64,000 nucleotides of DNA from contig OZ240219.1 in NCBI GenBank assembly GCA_965197645.1, forward strand, positions 256,001 to 320,000. The letters run 5' to 3'. This document shows, piece after piece, positions 539 through 29,093 of this stretch; the first letter of the stretch is position 1; each line of letters opens with the position of its first letter. Made by a program: the position numbers and the translations under genes. Source of the DNA: Dehalococcoidia bacterium (GTDB taxonomy: Bacteria; Chloroflexota; Dehalococcoidia; Plut-88900). The notes under the pieces were generated by a model. The model was not told where the DNA came from and did not search any database. It saw only the letters and a program-made list of their open reading frames with translations.

Positions 539-1858
539 ATGGCCAAACTAAAAGTCGTGCACTACTTGAACCAGTTCTTCGCCGGCGTAGGCGGGGAGGA
601 AAAGGCCGACACGCCTCCCGCTTCCAGGGAAGGCCCCACGGGACCGGGAATCGCCTTGGACAAGGCCTTTGGTGACGATGCGGAGGTAATCGGCACCGTC
701 TACTGTGGCGACAACTACATCGCCGAACAGGGCGAGCCGGCCACCGACCAAGTCATCGAGCTGATCTCCCAGTTCAACCCTGACATCGTGGTCGCCGGCC
801 CGGCTTTCGGTTCCGGACGCTACGGACTTGCCTGTGGCCAGGTCTGCCAAGCGGCCATCGAGAGCCTGAAGGTGGCGGCGATTACAGGCGCCCACAAGGA
901 TAGTCCGGTCGCCGAGGCCTACAAGGGCAAGGTCCTGATGGCCTCCACCCGAGACACCGGCGCCGGTATGAACGATGCCGTTCCCGTCCTGACCAGGTTG
1001 GCTCTCAAGCTGGCCAGGCACGAAAATCTGGGGCCCGCTGGGGAAGAGGGCTATCTTCCCACGGGCCGTCGGGAAAACGAGTTCTCCGATAAAACCGCTG
1101 CTCACAGGGGCGTCGAGATGTTGCTGCGAAAGCTGCGGGGCGAAGACCCCCGGACCGAGTGGCCGCTGCCCCGGTACGATCGGGTCGCCCCCGCCCCGCC
1201 CATACAAGACCCCAGCGCAGCAACCCTGGCCCTGGCTACCGAAGGAGGCCTCGTCCAGCGGGGCAACCCGGACAAGCTGGAATCGGCTTGGGCCACCAAA
1301 TGGTTGAAGTTCGATATCGCGGAACAGCCGGCCATGTCGACCGAGACCTATCAGAGCATCCACGGCGGCTTCGATACGACGGCCATCAGCGCCGAACCCA
1401 ACCGGCTGGTGCCCCTGGACGTGGTACGCGACGCTGAAAAGGAAGGCGAGATAGGGAAGGTCCACGACTATCTTTACAGCACCACGGGCAACATGGGGCC
1501 CATCACCAGCATGAAGCAGTTCGGACAGGAGATCGCCGCTGAGCTATCGGCGGCCGGGGTAAGCGGGGTGATACTCACCGCAACCTGAGGCACCGGCACG
1601 CGTAGCGGCGCTACGCTGGCCAAGGAGCTGGAGCGGGCGGGACTTCCCACCGCTCTCGTCACCGCCCTGCACAATCTGGCGGAGAACGTGGGCGCCAACC
1701 GGATAGTCAAGGGCAAGGCTATCCCCCATCCCCTCGGCGACCCGTCCCGATCTCCTGAGCAGGAGCAAGAGGTGCGCAAGAAGGTGCTGGACCAAGCCCT
1801 CGAGGCGTTGAAAACCCAGGTGGACGGACCTACGGTATTCGAGGGCGCGGAAGCCTAA
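539..1858 (+). CDS. grdB: Glycine/sarcosine/betaine reductase selenoprotein B, Sec encoded by TGA 1586-1588
   Basis: N-terminus KVVHYLNQFFAGVGGEEKAD, AGPAFGSGRYG and HGGFD motifs; frame continues past TGA as GTGTRSGATLAKELERAGLP...GANRIVKGKAIPHPLGDP to TAA 1856-1858, matching the GrdB C-terminus. Confidence 0.93.
1600..1616 (+). promoter_or_regulatory. Candidate SECIS hairpin of grdB
   Basis: Perfect 7-bp stem GCGTAGC/GCTACGC with GGC loop starting 19 nt after the UGA. Confidence 0.7.
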
Positions 1859-1872
1859 CGCACAGACTCCCT

Positions 1873-3330
1873 ATGGTTGCCGCCAACGGAAGAAACCCAG
1901 TTGTAAAGGGCGTCACTTACTGCCTGGCCCACGTGCCGGACCTGGTGAGGCACGGCTCCAAGCCTTCGAGGGACATCCCCAGGGATCCGGCGCTTTCGGC
2001 CACGCTGTTGGACCACTGGCGGCCTTTCGAGGAGGCGGTGACCTACCCGCCCAACCAGGTGTTTCTGGGAAACCTTCGACCGGATGACTTGGCCAAGGCG
2101 CCCAAGCCCTGGTTCCGGAACCCTCACATGGAGGGCGGTCGCTTCGGCGCCTACGGCGAGATCATGCCCCAGGAAGAGTTCTACGCCCTGATGAAGGTCT
2201 CGGACCAGTTCGACCTGGTCATGTTGGAGGAGGAGTTCACATCCGAGGCGAGGGCACTGCTGGCCGCACACCCCCTCTTCACCGAGGAGGACGTCGAGCC
2301 ACTGGAGCAAGGCGTACCCCTGGACAAGATCCGGGAGGTGCTGAACGAAGGCACAGCCCTGCCCCTCTATACCGAAAAGGACCGCCTTGTAGGCTGCTTC
2401 CAGCGGGCCCACGAAGAGGACAAGGCTCTGACCGCCGACTCCCTGATCGAAAACCTGGCCGCCAAGGCAACGGCGGCGCTGGCCCTGCGCCACGCCTTCG
2501 ACAAGGTCCCGTCCATCCGGCCCACGGATATCGACTACCTGCTGGGGTGCGGCGAGGAGGCCATCGGCGACCGGTACAACCGGGGCGGCGGCAATCTCGC
2601 CAAGGCCGTCGGCGAGATGTGCGGATGCGTCAACGCCACCGGCTCGGACGTCAAGGCCTTCTGCTGTGCACCCAACCATGCAGTAGTCATCGGCGGCTCG
2701 CTGATCCAATCGGGTGTCTTCGATGAGATCGCCATAGTGGCCGGCGGCTCATTTGCAAAGCTAGGCATGAAGTACCGTGGTCACGTTACCAACGACATGC
2801 CCATCCTGGAAGACGTGCTGGCCTCGGTAGCCATATTCATGGGCCCCGACGACGGCGAAAACCCCAAGGTCCGCCTGGACATCATCGGCAAGCACGATAT
2901 CTCATCGGGGTCGTCCAACCAGGCCATCACCCAAGCCGTGGTGGTTGATCCCCTCAAGAAGCACGGCTTCAAGATCACCGACATCGACCGTTACGCCACG
3001 GAGCTGCACAACCCCGAGATAACCGAGCCCCAGGGCAGCGGCAACACCCCTCGGACCAACTACCGCATGCTGGGCGGCATGGCCGTCAAGGAGGGGGAGA
3101 TAGAGGTCAGCGGACTGGACCAGTTCGTGGAGGACCACGGCATGGTCGGTTTCTCGCCCACCCAGGGGCATATCGCCTCGGCGGTGCCGTTCATAGGACA
3201 CGCCAGAGACATGATCCTGTCCGGCGATATCCAGCGGACCATGTTCTACGCCAAGGGCAGCCTGTTTCTGGGGCGGATGACCAACCTGTCGGACGGAATC
3301 TCCTTCATAATGGAGAGCAACGAGTTGTAA
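1873..3330 (+). CDS. grdC: Glycine/sarcosine/betaine reductase component C beta subunit (FabH-like fold)
   Basis: LAHVPDLVRHGSKP, TYPPNQVFLGN, CGEEAIGDRYNRGGGNLAKA, GSDVKAFCCAP, ELHNPEIT, GFSPTQGHI, KGSLFLGRMTNLSDGISF motifs. Confidence 0.92.
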   Translation: MVAANGRNPVVKGVTYCLAHVPDLVRHGSKPSRDIPRDPALSATLLDHWRPFEEAVTYPPNQVFLGNLRPDDLAKAPKPWFRNPHMEGGRFGAYGEIMPQEEFYALMKVSDQFDLVMLEEEFTSEARALLAAHPLFTEEDVEPLEQGVPLDKIREVLNEGTALPLYTEKDRLVGCFQRAHEEDKALTADSLIENLAAKATAALALRHAFDKVPSIRPTDIDYLLGCGEEAIGDRYNRGGGNLAKAVGEMCGCVNATGSDVKAFCCAPNHAVVIGGSLIQSGVFDEIAIVAGGSFAKLGMKYRGHVTNDMPILEDVLASVAIFMGPDDGENPKVRLDIIGKHDISSGSSNQAITQAVVVDPLKKHGFKITDIDRYATELHNPEITEPQGSGNTPRTNYRMLGGMAVKEGEIEVSGLDQFVEDHGMVGFSPTQGHIASAVPFIGHARDMILSGDIQRTMFYAKGSLFLGRMTNLSDGISFIMESNEL

Positions 3331-5221: not shown

Positions 5222-6784
5222 ATGTACGCCGAAGATCTCGCCGTCGTGAACGGCAACGTCATCACCATGGAACCGGACCAACCGTCCGCCGAAGCCGTGC
5301 TCATACACGACGGGCGCGTTGTCCACGTCGGCACCACGGAGGAGGTTCGAAGGGTGGCGCCTGCCGTACAGATCTTCGATTGCGAAGGGAGGACGGTAGT
5401 ACCGGGCTTCATCGACGCCCACTGTCACCTGGAGATGACCTGCCTGGCCGCCGACTACACCGTGGCGTGCCACGCTCCCCCGATGAAAAGCCTGTCCGAG
5501 ATTGCGGCGGCAATGCGCCGGAAAGCTGAACTGACAACGCCCGGCCAATGGATAATCGGTCGAAGCTCCTTCACCCTCTACTCGAAGGTGGAGGAGGGCC
5601 GGCTGTTCACCCGGCAGGAGCTGGACTCGATTTCGGAGCAACACCCTATCATTGTGTTCGCCGGGTTCCACGTCGGGATGCTCAACACCCTGGGCATGAA
5701 GAAGCTGGGCCTGTGGAACAAGGTCGATAGTCCGCCCAGGGGAGTGGTCATCAACCAGGACGAAGCTGGAGAGGCCACCGGCGTCGTTACCGAGATATGG
5801 GACCTGATGCCCTCGTTTTCGGCGGCCGAGACCAGGGACGCGCTCAGGTCGAAGGTGGTGGAGCTCTTCGTCTCCAAGGGGATCACCTCGGCCTACACGA
5901 TACCCTTCTCCTCCGACGATATACGATCGATCCAGGAGCTGCAGCCGGCGGGCGAGTTTCCGTTGCGCATTAGGCTCTACTACCACGTCCCCAAGCTGGT
6001 CTCGCTGGACTCGTTGCTGGCGATGGGAATGAGACCGGGATTCGGCAGCGACATGCTGAAATACGGCGGGGTCAAGATATTCGTCGATGGGACAGCCAAC
6101 GACGGCTACGGCAACCCGGTCGAAGACTTCAAATGGACCGCGCGGGAACTCAATCGGTTCGTTTCCCGGGCCCACGATGGCGGCCAGCAGCTGTTCATGC
6201 ACATCGCCAGCATACCCGCGATAACGATGGCGGCGGACGCTGTCGAAGCCGCTCTACGCAAAACGACGATGCCTCACCGGCACCGGATAGAGCACGGCGC
6301 AGATAACATCCAGGACCCGGAGGACATGAAGCGAATACAGAGCCTGGGCATCGGAATGGTGGCTACACCCCAGTTCATCTATAGCGGGGGGAGCAAGCGG
6401 AGACGGAGCGGCCCAAAGCGCGCCCGGTTCCGCACTCTGATAGACCACGGCATCGAAATCATAGGCGCCAGCGACGCCACCGGCACCGTGCCCGATGGGG
6501 TGGCGCCCCTGTTCAACATCGCCTGCGCTGCGGTGCGTCGAAACGTATCCGGCGAAATCCACGACGTCGAGGAGCGGATAACCGCCGAGGAGGGGCTGAA
6601 AATGTTCACCACGTGGGCTGCCAAGGGCGGCTACGAGGAGCATGAAAAGGGTTCCGTCGCCGTGGGCAAGCTGGGAGACCTGGCCGTCCTGTCGAACGAC
6701 CCGCTGGAAGCAAAGGACGACGAGCTGTACAACATCGACGTGGAGGCTACTATCCTGGGCGGCCAGGTGGTGTACGAAAAGTAG
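5222..6784 (+). CDS. Amidohydrolase-3 (YtcJ-like) metal-dependent hydrolase
   Basis: VVPGFIDAHCH, GVKIFVDG, HRIEHG, KGSVAVGKLGDLAVL, TILGGQVVY. Confidence 0.88.
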   Translation: MYAEDLAVVNGNVITMEPDQPSAEAVLIHDGRVVHVGTTEEVRRVAPAVQIFDCEGRTVVPGFIDAHCHLEMTCLAADYTVACHAPPMKSLSEIAAAMRRKAELTTPGQWIIGRSSFTLYSKVEEGRLFTRQELDSISEQHPIIVFAGFHVGMLNTLGMKKLGLWNKVDSPPRGVVINQDEAGEATGVVTEIWDLMPSFSAAETRDALRSKVVELFVSKGITSAYTIPFSSDDIRSIQELQPAGEFPLRIRLYYHVPKLVSLDSLLAMGMRPGFGSDMLKYGGVKIFVDGTANDGYGNPVEDFKWTARELNRFVSRAHDGGQQLFMHIASIPAITMAADAVEAALRKTTMPHRHRIEHGADNIQDPEDMKRIQSLGIGMVATPQFIYSGGSKRRRSGPKRARFRTLIDHGIEIIGASDATGTVPDGVAPLFNIACAAVRRNVSGEIHDVEERITAEEGLKMFTTWAAKGGYEEHEKGSVAVGKLGDLAVLSNDPLEAKDDELYNIDVEATILGGQVVYEK

Positions 6785-27046: not shown

Positions 27047-27076
27047 TGGACACGGGAAGAACGGGGCCATTAGAAT
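27047..27076 (+). promoter_or_regulatory. Candidate sigma70 promoter of the two-selenoprotein operon
   Basis: TGGACA, 18-nt spacer, TAGAAT; GGAGGTG RBS before ATG 27115. Confidence 0.5.
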
Positions 27077-27114
27077 AGTGCTCGGTTCCCGAAGTTACCG
27101 AGTGGAGGTGAGTC

Positions 27115-27468
27115 ATGCCGGCCAACGAGGTCACGATCTACCTGAAAAACGGCTGAACGTCCTGCAGAAAGGCGAAGGAGTTCCTTTCGCAAAAGGGTGT
27201 GTCGCTGACGGAGCGGGAGATATTCAAGCAACCCCTCAGCAAACAGGAGATAGAGGGCCTGCTCGAACTGCGGCCCCTGGACGAGGTATTCTCCTGGAAG
27301 AGCAGACGGTTGAAGGCCCTGGAGTTGGACGCGGAGGGGCTGTCCGACGAGGAGAAGCTGGACTGGATGACCAAGGAGCCGGCCCTGGTTCGCCGGCCCA
27401 TGATAGACGTGGGCGAGGAGCTAGTGGTGGGGTTCAATGCCAAGAGGCTGGCGGAGATTTATCCCTAA
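27115..27468 (+). CDS. Spx/ArsC-family thioredoxin-fold selenoprotein (UxxC), Sec encoded by TGA 27154-27156
   Basis: MPANEVTIYLKNG-U-TSCRKAKEFLSQKGVSLTEREIFKQPLS...EPALVRRPMI...VVGFN; TGA sits at the first Cys of the family CxxC; hairpin at 27167-27190. Confidence 0.88.
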
Positions 27469-27481
27469 TCAGGAGGGACAG

Positions 27482-28336
27482 ATGAGCGCTCAGACACATG
27501 AACGGCCCGACATGCTGGTCGAGACGGACTGGCTGGAGAAGTACATGGATGATCCCCAGCTGCGGATAGTGGACATGGGGCCGGTAGACGGGTTCAAGCG
27601 GTGCCACATTCCCGGCGCCATCGGCCTCAACAGGGACTATCTCAAAGACCCGGACAACGATCTGTTCGTGATGCAGCCAGAGCAGTTCGAAAAGGCGATG
27701 GGGAAGGTGGGCATCGGCAACGAGCACAACGTGGTCGCCTACGACGATTACGGGGGACTGTACGCCGCCCGGCTGTGGTGGGCGCTGCGGACCTTCGGCC
27801 ACGATAAGGTATGGGTGCTCAACGGGGGATGGAACAAGTGGATGAGGGAGGGCAGGGCGTGGACACAGATAGCCGTCACCGGGTACCACTCCCGCGACTT
27901 CAACCCCCACCCGCCGGCTACCTTCAAGGCCCGAGCCGACTACTCGATGCTCTGCTCGGCCGAGAATATCATGGAGAGATTAAGCGACTCTGATTTCGTT
28001 ACCCTGGACGTGCGCGGCGACGGTGAGTACAACGGGACCAACCTTCGGGGCATGAACCGGCGCGGCGGGCACATGCCCAACACCGTGCACATCGAGTGGT
28101 CCAAGGCGGTCACCGACGACGACCTGCGGACCTTCCGCCCTCCGGACGAGCTAAGGGAGCTGTACGCCTCGGCGGGCGTGACGCCGGAGAAACAGGTAGC
28201 CACATACTGACAGGCCGGAATACGTGCGGCGCACGCTGTATTTGTTCTCAAGCTGCTGGGCTACGAAAACGTCCAGAACTACGATGGTTCCTGGGGCGAG
28301 TGGGGCAACCGGGACGATACGCCTATAGAAGCTTAG
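27482..28336 (+). CDS. Tandem-domain rhodanese / SseA-type sulfurtransferase selenoprotein, Sec encoded by TGA 28208-28210
   Basis: HIPGA, AARLWW, LNGG, GHMP; frame continues [44 protein letters not shown] to TAG 28334-28336, restoring the catalytic loop and the YDGSWxEW signature. Confidence 0.92.
28219..28242 (+). promoter_or_regulatory. Candidate SECIS hairpin of the sulfurtransferase
   Basis: AATA-CGTGC-GGC-GCACG-CTG-TATT; GGC loop starts 18 nt after the UGA. Confidence 0.65.
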
Positions 28337-29093
28337 GCCCGACCACGTACTTCAGGTTGGCCGTGGTCACCTCGGCCACTTCCTCGACCGAGATGCCCCT
28401 GACCTCGGCCACCTTCTGAGCTACCCTGGCCACCTGGGCAGGCTCCAGCGGGTTCCGCTTCTTCCACGGCTGGGGGAAGGAGTCGGTCTCCAGGATCATG
28501 TACTCCATTGGGAGCCGTTTCGCTACGTCGGGGAGATGGGGGATGCTCAGCAGGGTCTTGGAGAAAGAGACATAGATCCCCATATCGACGCACTCGTCGG
28601 CTATGCGCTGGTCCGCGACGAAATAGTGCATGATGGCGCCCACCTCGTAGACGTGCTCCTCCTTGAGAATGCGAAGGCAGTCCCAGTAGGCGTCCCGGCT
28701 GTGGAAGACAATGGGCATCTTCAGCTCTCTGGCCAACCTCACGTGGTCCCGAAAGACCTGCTGCTGTAGCTCGCGGGGCGCCTTGCCCTTGAGATAGTCG
28801 AGGCCCGGTTCGCTCACGACGACCACCCTGTCGCTGGCAAGGGCCATCTCCTTGAGCTGTTCCAGGGTCTCGTCGGTGATGGACTCATCGACGGACATGG
28901 GATGGATGCCGACGCCGGCGTAGATATCGGGATAGGCCTCGGCGATACGGATGCAAGCCCGTGAAGACTCGACGGTAGTGCCGGCGGTGATGATGCGCTC
29001 GACGCCGGCCTCCCTGGCTCGCTGGACCACGGCCTCCAGCTGCTCGGAGGGGTAGTCGTCCAGGTGGGTGTGGGAGTCGGAGAGGTTGGGCAT
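28323..29093 (-). CDS. tatD: TatD family hydrolase
   Basis: DSHTHLD, GIHP, EPGLDY, FHSRDA, LETDS. Confidence 0.85.

Follow-up and report, generated by a model that had tools for sequence, protein, structure and literature searches.

Introduction

Selenoproteins related to arsenate reductases and to rhodaneses have both been catalogued, and the locus described here adds a member of each, side by side on one strand. The sources are cited here from excerpts of their text. In the Sargasso Sea selenoproteome (PMC1088965), rhodanese-related sulfurtransferases (COG2897; three sequences) and arsenate reductases (COG1393) appear as selenoproteins with predicted selenocysteine insertion sequence (SECIS) elements; “ArsC-like” selenoproteins are described in Deltaproteobacteria (PMC1794560); and two reviews (PMC9312934 and PMC13188914) tabulate an “Arsenate reductase-like protein, UxxC” as well as rhodanese forms with UxxG, where U is selenocysteine (Sec), the latter review giving UxxG to its rhodanese “form 2” and “form 4”. 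These excerpts bear out the statement of an earlier note on our locus that the two families had been reported separately. The locus lies in a stretch of 64,000 nucleotides, hereafter the window, of a Dehalococcoidia bacterium of the phylum Chloroflexota (assembly GCA_965197645.1, contig OZ240219.1, positions 256,001 to 320,000 of the forward strand); the coordinates below are those of the window, and the two genes, called gene 1 and gene 2, are predicted to encode an ArsC/Spx-like protein with a UxxC motif and a rhodanese with Sec at its catalytic position.

Selenoprotein genes that stand together are also described. In the excerpt at hand, the “Selenoprotein operon” section of PMC13188914 names grdA-grdB, prdB-prdC, frhA-frhD-hdrA, Prx with a SelW-like protein, SAO, and Tso; the ArsC-like/Sec-rhodanese pair is absent from that section. 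Dehalococcoidia metagenome-assembled genomes (MAGs) with 46–49 selenoproteins are reported in the excerpted text on BSepDB (PMC13326102). Our literature search on selenoprotein with Spx and ArsC returned no paper on a Sec-containing Spx-like protein, keeping in mind that the survey supplements or BSepDB may list these very genes.

To our knowledge, neither natural Sec-rhodaneses nor Sec-containing ArsC/Spx-like proteins have ever been characterised biochemically. The earlier note, made from the letters of the DNA and a list of its open reading frames (ORFs), had seen in the pair a dedicated and undescribed selenium-sulfur relay. We favour another explanation, to which we give a probability of roughly 78%, namely that these are two authentic, co-transcribed selenoproteins whose genes adjoin through one lineage-specific juxtaposition inherited within one Dehalococcoidia family. 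On the comparisons reported below, both genes are best taken as further members of catalogued selenoprotein families, and their pairing as part of a larger syntenic block and not as a widely conserved functional module.

Results and Discussion

Two Genes Truncated by Standard Gene Calling

Gene 1 runs from an ATG at 27115 to a TAA ending at 27468 (117 aa), with a single in-frame TGA at residue 14 in the context K-N-G-U-T-S-C-R-K-A (U14-T-S-C17). Gene 2 runs from an ATG at 27482 to a TAG ending at 28336 (284 aa), and its single in-frame TGA, at residue 243, stands in the context A-T-Y-U-Q-A-G-I-R. Both genes are on the same strand and 13 nt apart. The coordinates and the gap agree with the earlier description of two adjacent genes, each with one in-frame TGA at its catalytic position; equally correct was the remark that the ORF track truncates both, as table 11 shortens gene 1 to 27199–27468 (89 aa) and gene 2 to 27437–28210 (257 aa). 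The effect reaches the databases: the sole gene 1 protein that a large protein collection holds for the source genome is the 89-aa C-terminal fragment of the public gene call (P0003). The features of the locus are as follows, with the evidence for each in brackets.

27047–27076, + strand: candidate sigma-70-like promoter, TGGACA-18 nt-TAGAAT (agrees with the consensus at 10 of 12 positions; a consensus match only)
27104–27110, + strand: Shine-Dalgarno sequence of gene 1, GGAGGTG (4 nt before the ATG at 27115)
27115–27468, + strand: gene 1, putative ArsC/Spx-superfamily thioredoxin-fold selenoprotein with U14-T-S-C17 (translation, family scans, structure matches)
27154–27156, + strand: UGA predicted to be read as Sec, residue 14 of gene 1 (TGA/Cys pattern in homologous loci)
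27172–27190, + strand: bacterial SECIS (bSECIS)-like hairpin of gene 1 (pairing and covariation across relatives)
27471–27477, + strand: Shine-Dalgarno sequence of gene 2, AGGAGGG (inside the 13-nt gap, 4 nt before the ATG)
27482–28336, + strand: gene 2, putative rhodanese with two domains (thiosulfate-sulfurtransferase type) and Sec243 in its U-Q-A-G-I-R loop (family scans, structure matches)
28208–28210, + strand: UGA predicted to be read as Sec, residue 243 of gene 2 (TGA/Cys pattern in homologues)
within 28222–28236, + strand: bSECIS-like hairpin of gene 2 (pairing and covariation across relatives)

Selenocysteine at the In-Frame TGA Codons

Four observations lead us to read both TGAs as Sec codons: the machinery is in the genome, the codons are conserved, TGA is otherwise a normal stop, and conserved hairpins follow (next section). 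The source genome, a single 3.21-Mb contig that is 94% complete, contains tRNA-Sec (66.4 bits, with the anticodon tca (UCA) according to ARAGORN), selA (547.7 bits), selB (346.8 bits), and selD (379.7 bits), all four above curated cut-offs. A lack of this machinery, or of the TGAs in relatives, was what the earlier note had held would overturn its proposal; every component was found, and the TGAs are kept. As a separate observation, selD (G000:C1:941844–942767, + strand, locus L017) itself carries one in-frame TGA, and the selenophosphate synthetase of this genome is probably a selenoprotein as well.

Conservation was read in a set of 61 genomes of the same class, source genome included. Long matches to gene 1 occur in 22 of them, 21 with one TGA and one (G037) without; among the gene 1 loci that were read, the TGA falls on the same codon and is followed by x-x-C in 20 of 21, the remaining locus (L063) having Cys. 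Cys also occupies the Sec site in three loci (L114, L123, and L127) of an all-species pattern scan, which took one genome for each bacterial or archaeal species and returned 80 loci. For gene 2, the codon of residue 243 is TGA in 24 of 25 homologues, i.e., in all 11 from the same family and in 13 of the 14 from outside it; the sole exception is a TGC in a tandem paralogue on locus L069. This locus (1369–3040, genome G027) deserves mention in its own right, since one of its tandem rhodanese paralogues has TGC (Cys) and the other TGA (Sec), a natural Cys/Sec pair. The protein sequence is conserved on both sides of the TGA across relatives.

One has to consider, of course, that the TGAs could be sequencing errors, lesions of pseudogenes, or sense codons of an altered code. 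Apart from the truncation of both genes by standard ORF calling, nothing speaks for such an artefact. TGA is the ordinary stop of 12 of the 44 long ORFs in the window, so that global reassignment of this codon is ruled out. Independent DNA assemblies from two other studies span the stretch, and no change at either TGA is found among the differences listed, 45 further differences being unlisted. Moreover, dozens of independent genomes have TGA at this codon amid conserved protein sequence, homologues have Cys at both sites and not Trp or Gly, and the Sec machinery is complete. We, thus, regard an artefact as extremely improbable.

The protein collection mentioned above gave eight matches with gene 1; it holds truncated gene calls and is, therefore, unsuited to Sec/Cys statistics. 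Four of its metagenome proteins (P0005, P0007, P0008, and P0009) show Trp at the Sec-aligned position (..K-W-N-T-C..), which may be a TGA that a gene caller, working with a different table, translated as Trp.

Conserved Hairpins Downstream of Both TGA Codons

A hairpin after each TGA had been seen in the window, and both are present and conserved with covariation across relatives. In gene 1, the stem begins 18 nt after the U of the UGA; it reads GCGAAGG / AGUUC / CUUUCGC in the window (7 bp and a 5-nt loop) and has 8 bp and a 3-nt, G-containing loop in most relatives. Its positions are paired in 95.6% of 160 cells, against 36–67% when the partner strand is slid; compensatory changes occur at four of the eight pairs, and the covariation score was reached by none of 500 shuffles. 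RNAalifold independently predicts the identical helix. Some of the compensations alter the encoded residues on both sides of the stem (K/S to R/A; for example, AAG/TCG to CGG/GCG), so that they are not predicted by protein conservation alone.

The gene 2 stem begins 14–15 nt after the U of the UGA and reads CGUGC / GGC / GCACG in the window (5 bp, 28223–28235), most relatives having 6 bp with the same GGC loop. Pairing is found in 90% of 150 cells (10–62% with the partner slid), the closing pair alternates between AU (11), CG (7), and GC (2), and here too the covariation score was reached by 0 of 500 shuffles; RNAalifold recovers the inner four pairs. The same stem is also flagged by a terminator scan. 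On this comparative evidence, both hairpins can be classed as bSECIS-like stem-loops shortly 3′ of the UGA, and the two genes are, in our reading, authentic selenoprotein genes hidden by standard ORF calling.

Gene Order Within and Outside the Family

The two Sec genes are neighbours in all 11 other genomes of the same family, which belong to three other genera (four with that of the window). The gap between them is 16–30 nt in eight of the 11, and 269, 532, and 1875 nt in G001, G002, and G011, respectively. In G011, a 1.9-kb insertion (L054:8143–10017) holds genes for an AbiEii-like ATPase (AAA_21) and for a DUF4276 protein and resembles a small two-gene module of the mobile or defence type. 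In the same 11 genomes, synteny also extends over about 8 kb downstream of the two genes (TatD, thiE, thyX, and those that follow), and upstream of 27000 nothing is conserved among them. Since the downstream genes keep their order too, inherited gene order explains the adjacency, and the pair is most simply described, from these alignments, as the end of a block whose gene order is generally conserved.

Outside the family, no recurrence of the two genes as neighbours was found in independent lineages. In the closest outgroup, G042 (54% and 58% identity), they are on separate contigs and are flanked by other ORFs. There is no rhodanese within 6–8 kb of the ArsC-like Sec gene in nine further class-level loci, and 13 Sec-rhodanese loci likewise lack an ArsC-like gene for about 6 kb around. 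Among the loci of the all-species scan, a rhodanese lies in the flanks only in the 11 same-family genomes and in none of the 69 others, some of which are on short contigs where absence is weaker. Of the two comparative checks proposed for the pair, alternation of Cys and TGA was, thus, seen at both sites, whereas synteny is confined to one family.

The neighbours of the out-of-family Sec ArsC-like gene (37 loci) include no recurrent redox partner; MutS, MutL, a HAD-like ORF, EamA, DTW, YCII, and a GcvT-like protein were found, as judged by Pfam on selected ones. The 13 Sec-rhodanese loci show no recurrent neighbour cluster.

These data bear directly on the proposal of a dedicated two-selenoprotein relay, in which thiosulfate or mercaptopyruvate would give rise to an Se-S adduct on the Sec-rhodanese, for its UxxC partner to resolve, reduce, or sense. 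Several facts fit it: counting the window, the two genes lie 13–30 nt apart on the same strand in nine of the 12 family genomes, each partner belongs to a redox- or sulfur-active selenoprotein family, and the pair is kept over four genera although the upstream flank is not conserved. Five of the nine out-of-family genomes with a Sec ArsC-like gene also carry a Sec-rhodanese elsewhere, but this co-occurrence is confounded, and not independent evidence, because both genes need the Sec trait. However, just one family shows the adjacency, as part of a larger syntenic block, G042 and all other lineages examined lack it, G011 tolerates its insertion between the genes, and elsewhere the neighbours of each gene are unrelated housekeeping genes. 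The claim of an undescribed dedicated relay does not hold up well against this distribution; such a relay is possible, comparative genomics lends it no support, and we consider it unlikely. The pair resembles known selenoprotein operons in having two Sec genes very closely spaced on one strand, but it recurs in one family only, whereas the operons recognised in the excerpted review are found repeatedly in different lineages or have functional links that have been demonstrated.

The relatives of gene 1 have genomic surroundings of their own. In 12 other Dehalococcoidia loci, the Sec ArsC/Spx-like gene directly follows a MutS-like gene (L089, L091, L095, L098, L100, L101, L103, L106, L108, L109, and L111, around position 6000 in each, and L090; Pfam checked on L091 only), and in seven of these 12 it is followed by a small HAD-like ORF and a MutL-like gene, an odd but recurrent place in a mismatch-repair cluster. 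TGA-bearing homologues at 38–42% identity are found in cultured Archangium (L112, L113, L115–L118, and L120; several complete), A. gephyra and A. minus (L112 and L116) among them, where the gene adjoins EamA and DTW genes (Pfam on representatives only). Others occur in Syntrophales and further deltaproteobacterial MAGs.

Predicted Product of Gene 1

Spx is a redox-sensing regulator that binds RNA polymerase, and Spx regulators are, as far as is known, a Firmicutes feature. The gene 1 product lies above the cut-off of the ArsC family (PF03960, 55.6 bits; cut-off 24) and narrowly above that of the Spx/MgsR family (TIGR01617, 79.1 versus 75.05 bits), and it falls below the models of Spx proper (NF002459, 77.4 with a cut-off of 123; NF009885, 52.9 with 152; NF009210, 48 with 159). 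A glutaredoxin-coupled arsenate reductase was considered and rejected (TIGR00014, 36.7 versus 106.05 bits). The six best matches among solved structures are all Spx (E 4e-16 to 3e-14), the best one named arsenate reductase reaching 2.7e-10.

The alignment with Spx of Bacillus and Streptococcus (1z3e, 3l78, and 7f75) covers residues 6–114; U14 and C17 face the first and second Cys of the Spx CxxC, the stretch C/U-T-S-C-R-K-A is shared, and the R-R-P motif is retained. Differences from Spx are Sec for the first Cys, the absence of the Spx C-terminal tail, a Chloroflexota host, and a loop deletion, the HMMER alignment showing a 2-residue gap where Spx reads ..E-D-G-T... The length of this region varies within the gene 1 family. 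We take the shortened loop to be the alpha-subunit contact of Spx, and the stretch opposite the gap to include Gly52, presumably required for binding the C-terminal domain of that subunit (alpha-CTD).

Could gene 1, then, encode a true Spx-type regulator that binds RNA polymerase and uses a selenenylsulfide switch, with the co-transcribed rhodanese acting in a sulfur or oxidant stress response? The structure matches, the U-T-S-C-R-K-A stretch, and the pass on TIGR01617 would suit such a role. The missed cut-offs of all three Spx-proper models, the gap at the presumed contact in a loop of variable length, the lack of the C-terminal tail in a protein of 117 aa, and the occurrence outside Firmicutes do not, and we find this role quite improbable, more so than the relay.

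The closer likeness is with the “Arsenate reductase-like” or “ArsC-like” selenoproteins (COG1393) of the excerpted surveys, with which gene 1 shares the ArsC fold (PF03960) and Sec as the first residue of an N-terminal UxxC, in a comparison made by motif and fold. It departs from that family on the NCBI model “ArsC family (seleno)protein” (NF041106), where it scores 46.8 bits with a cut-off of 85. Since its score on TIGR01617 is higher than on NF041106, gene 1 may belong to a separate Sec-bearing branch of ArsC-like selenoproteins.

Predicted Product of Gene 2

Gene 2 matches the rhodanese domain in two stretches (PF00581, 118 bits), and its best solved structures are the Thermus thermophilus rhodanese 1uar (E 7e-47), 3hwi, and 3aax, aligned from end to end. 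In 1uar and 3hwi, the residue opposite U243 is the Cys of the Y-C-R-I-x-E-R loop, a Cys that we take to be catalytic. Across 23 sequences, C/U243, Q244, G246, and R248 are invariant (loop U-Q-x-G-x-R). With two PF00581 domains and U243 in the C-terminal six-residue loop, the product is assigned, by homology, to the two-domain rhodaneses/thiosulfate sulfurtransferases. Identity as a 3-mercaptopyruvate sulfurtransferase (3-MST) was tried and rejected (NF008557, 143.3 bits versus 250).

With the Cys-containing thiosulfate sulfurtransferases (1uar; Mycobacterium tuberculosis CysA, 3hwi/3aax; SseA, 3hzu), to which it aligns over its full length (E 7e-47 to 1e-37), gene 2 shares an inactive N-terminal and a catalytic C-terminal domain and a six-residue loop ending in Arg; it differs from them by Sec in place of Cys and by a loop continuing as Q-A-G-I-R instead of R-I-x-E-R. 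Like the “rhodanese-related sulfurtransferase” selenoproteins (COG2897, UxxG) in the excerpted catalogues, it has two domains and Sec at the catalytic position followed by x-x-G (U-Q-A-G), in a likeness of motif and domains. In both the window's family and G042, the rhodaneses have a linker insertion of about 10 residues between the domains, which is missing from the other Sec and Cys homologues (alignment A5, columns 143–152; window residues about 130–140).

Transcription and Proposed Mode of Action

The single promoter-like element that had been placed before both genes is there, at the listed position; what did not stand up is its weight, since a scan of 2.2 kb gives one site versus 0.6 ± 0.8 in shuffles, which is not significant alone. 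Contigs from RNA libraries cover 27143–27373 (spanning the TGA of gene 1), 27209–27360, 27513–27690, and 27663–27828, and hint at transcription of parts of both genes; none covers the TGA of gene 2. These are contigs and not reads, and missing cover proves nothing. The small word shares of runs X10–X13 and X14 were considered as a sign of habitat and dismissed as no evidence of it. With a gap as short as 13 nt here and similarly tight gaps in most of the family, co-transcription is plausible, and the two genes probably form one transcription unit. Just beyond them, a TatD-family gene on the − strand (28323–29093; PF01026, 224.5 bits) meets gene 2 tail to tail, the two sharing 14 nt (28323–28336) at their 3′ ends, so that no space for a terminator remains between them.

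In the mechanism that we propose, both genes would be transcribed together from a start near 27080. On meeting the UGA, the ribosome would insert Sec instead of terminating, the hairpin 14–18 nt downstream recruiting SelB with Sec-tRNA(Sec); we infer this step because it is the standard bacterial mechanism. The gene 1 product, by homology a thiol-disulfide-type oxidoreductase or a redox sensor, would cycle between selenol/thiol and selenenylsulfide at U14-x-x-C17. In the gene 2 product, Sec in place of the catalytic Cys would carry sulfane sulfur as an Se-S adduct.

Weighing the Favoured Explanation

Several points weigh against the explanation by two authentic, co-transcribed selenoproteins joined by inheritance, and they are best considered together. 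Folded as single sequences, both post-TGA regions do no better than shuffles (z −0.2 to −0.6), and at 5 bp the window's own gene 2 hairpin is a short one. The gap at 27469–27481 is not spanned by any RNA contig, and RNA libraries can contain DNA. The scores stay below the cut-offs of the curated Sec-specific NCBI models, NF041106 as given above and NF041203 with 40.2 versus 115 bits, and the placement of both genes in catalogued families was made by motif and superfamily and not by direct comparison with published accessions such as MDE3003982.1 and MCY3690685.1, named in PMC13188914. Every function given to the two proteins is drawn from homology. Lastly, the tight spacing kept over four genera at 55–65% protein identity could reflect selection for co-expression; as tight spacing fits both this and general synteny, the data cannot separate the two.

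Implications

The more ambitious idea, that in this family the Spx-like UxxC protein and the Sec-rhodanese work together as a selenium-based persulfide/sulfane-sulfur relay or sensor, the Se-S adduct of the rhodanese being handed to the UxxC protein or resolved there, and the latter perhaps signalling to RNA polymerase in the manner of Spx, is one we hold to be improbable. If true, such a working pair would be without precedent as a sulfur relay between two selenoproteins, and possibly also as a transcription switch based on selenocysteine. As far as genome comparison goes, neither a functional relay nor an Spx-like regulatory role of gene 1 finds support; the pairing would gain importance only through proof of a specific interaction, which the comparative evidence gives no reason to expect.

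The individual genes are another matter. Any expressed example of a Sec-rhodanese or of a Sec ArsC/Spx-like protein would be useful, and the cultured Archangium carrying gene 1 homologues offer a tractable organism for 75Se labelling. The practical gain lies in correct annotation: the public gene call of this genome shortens both genes, as happens in relatives too, so that the selenoproteome of these Dehalococcoidia is under-counted wherever read-through is not modelled.

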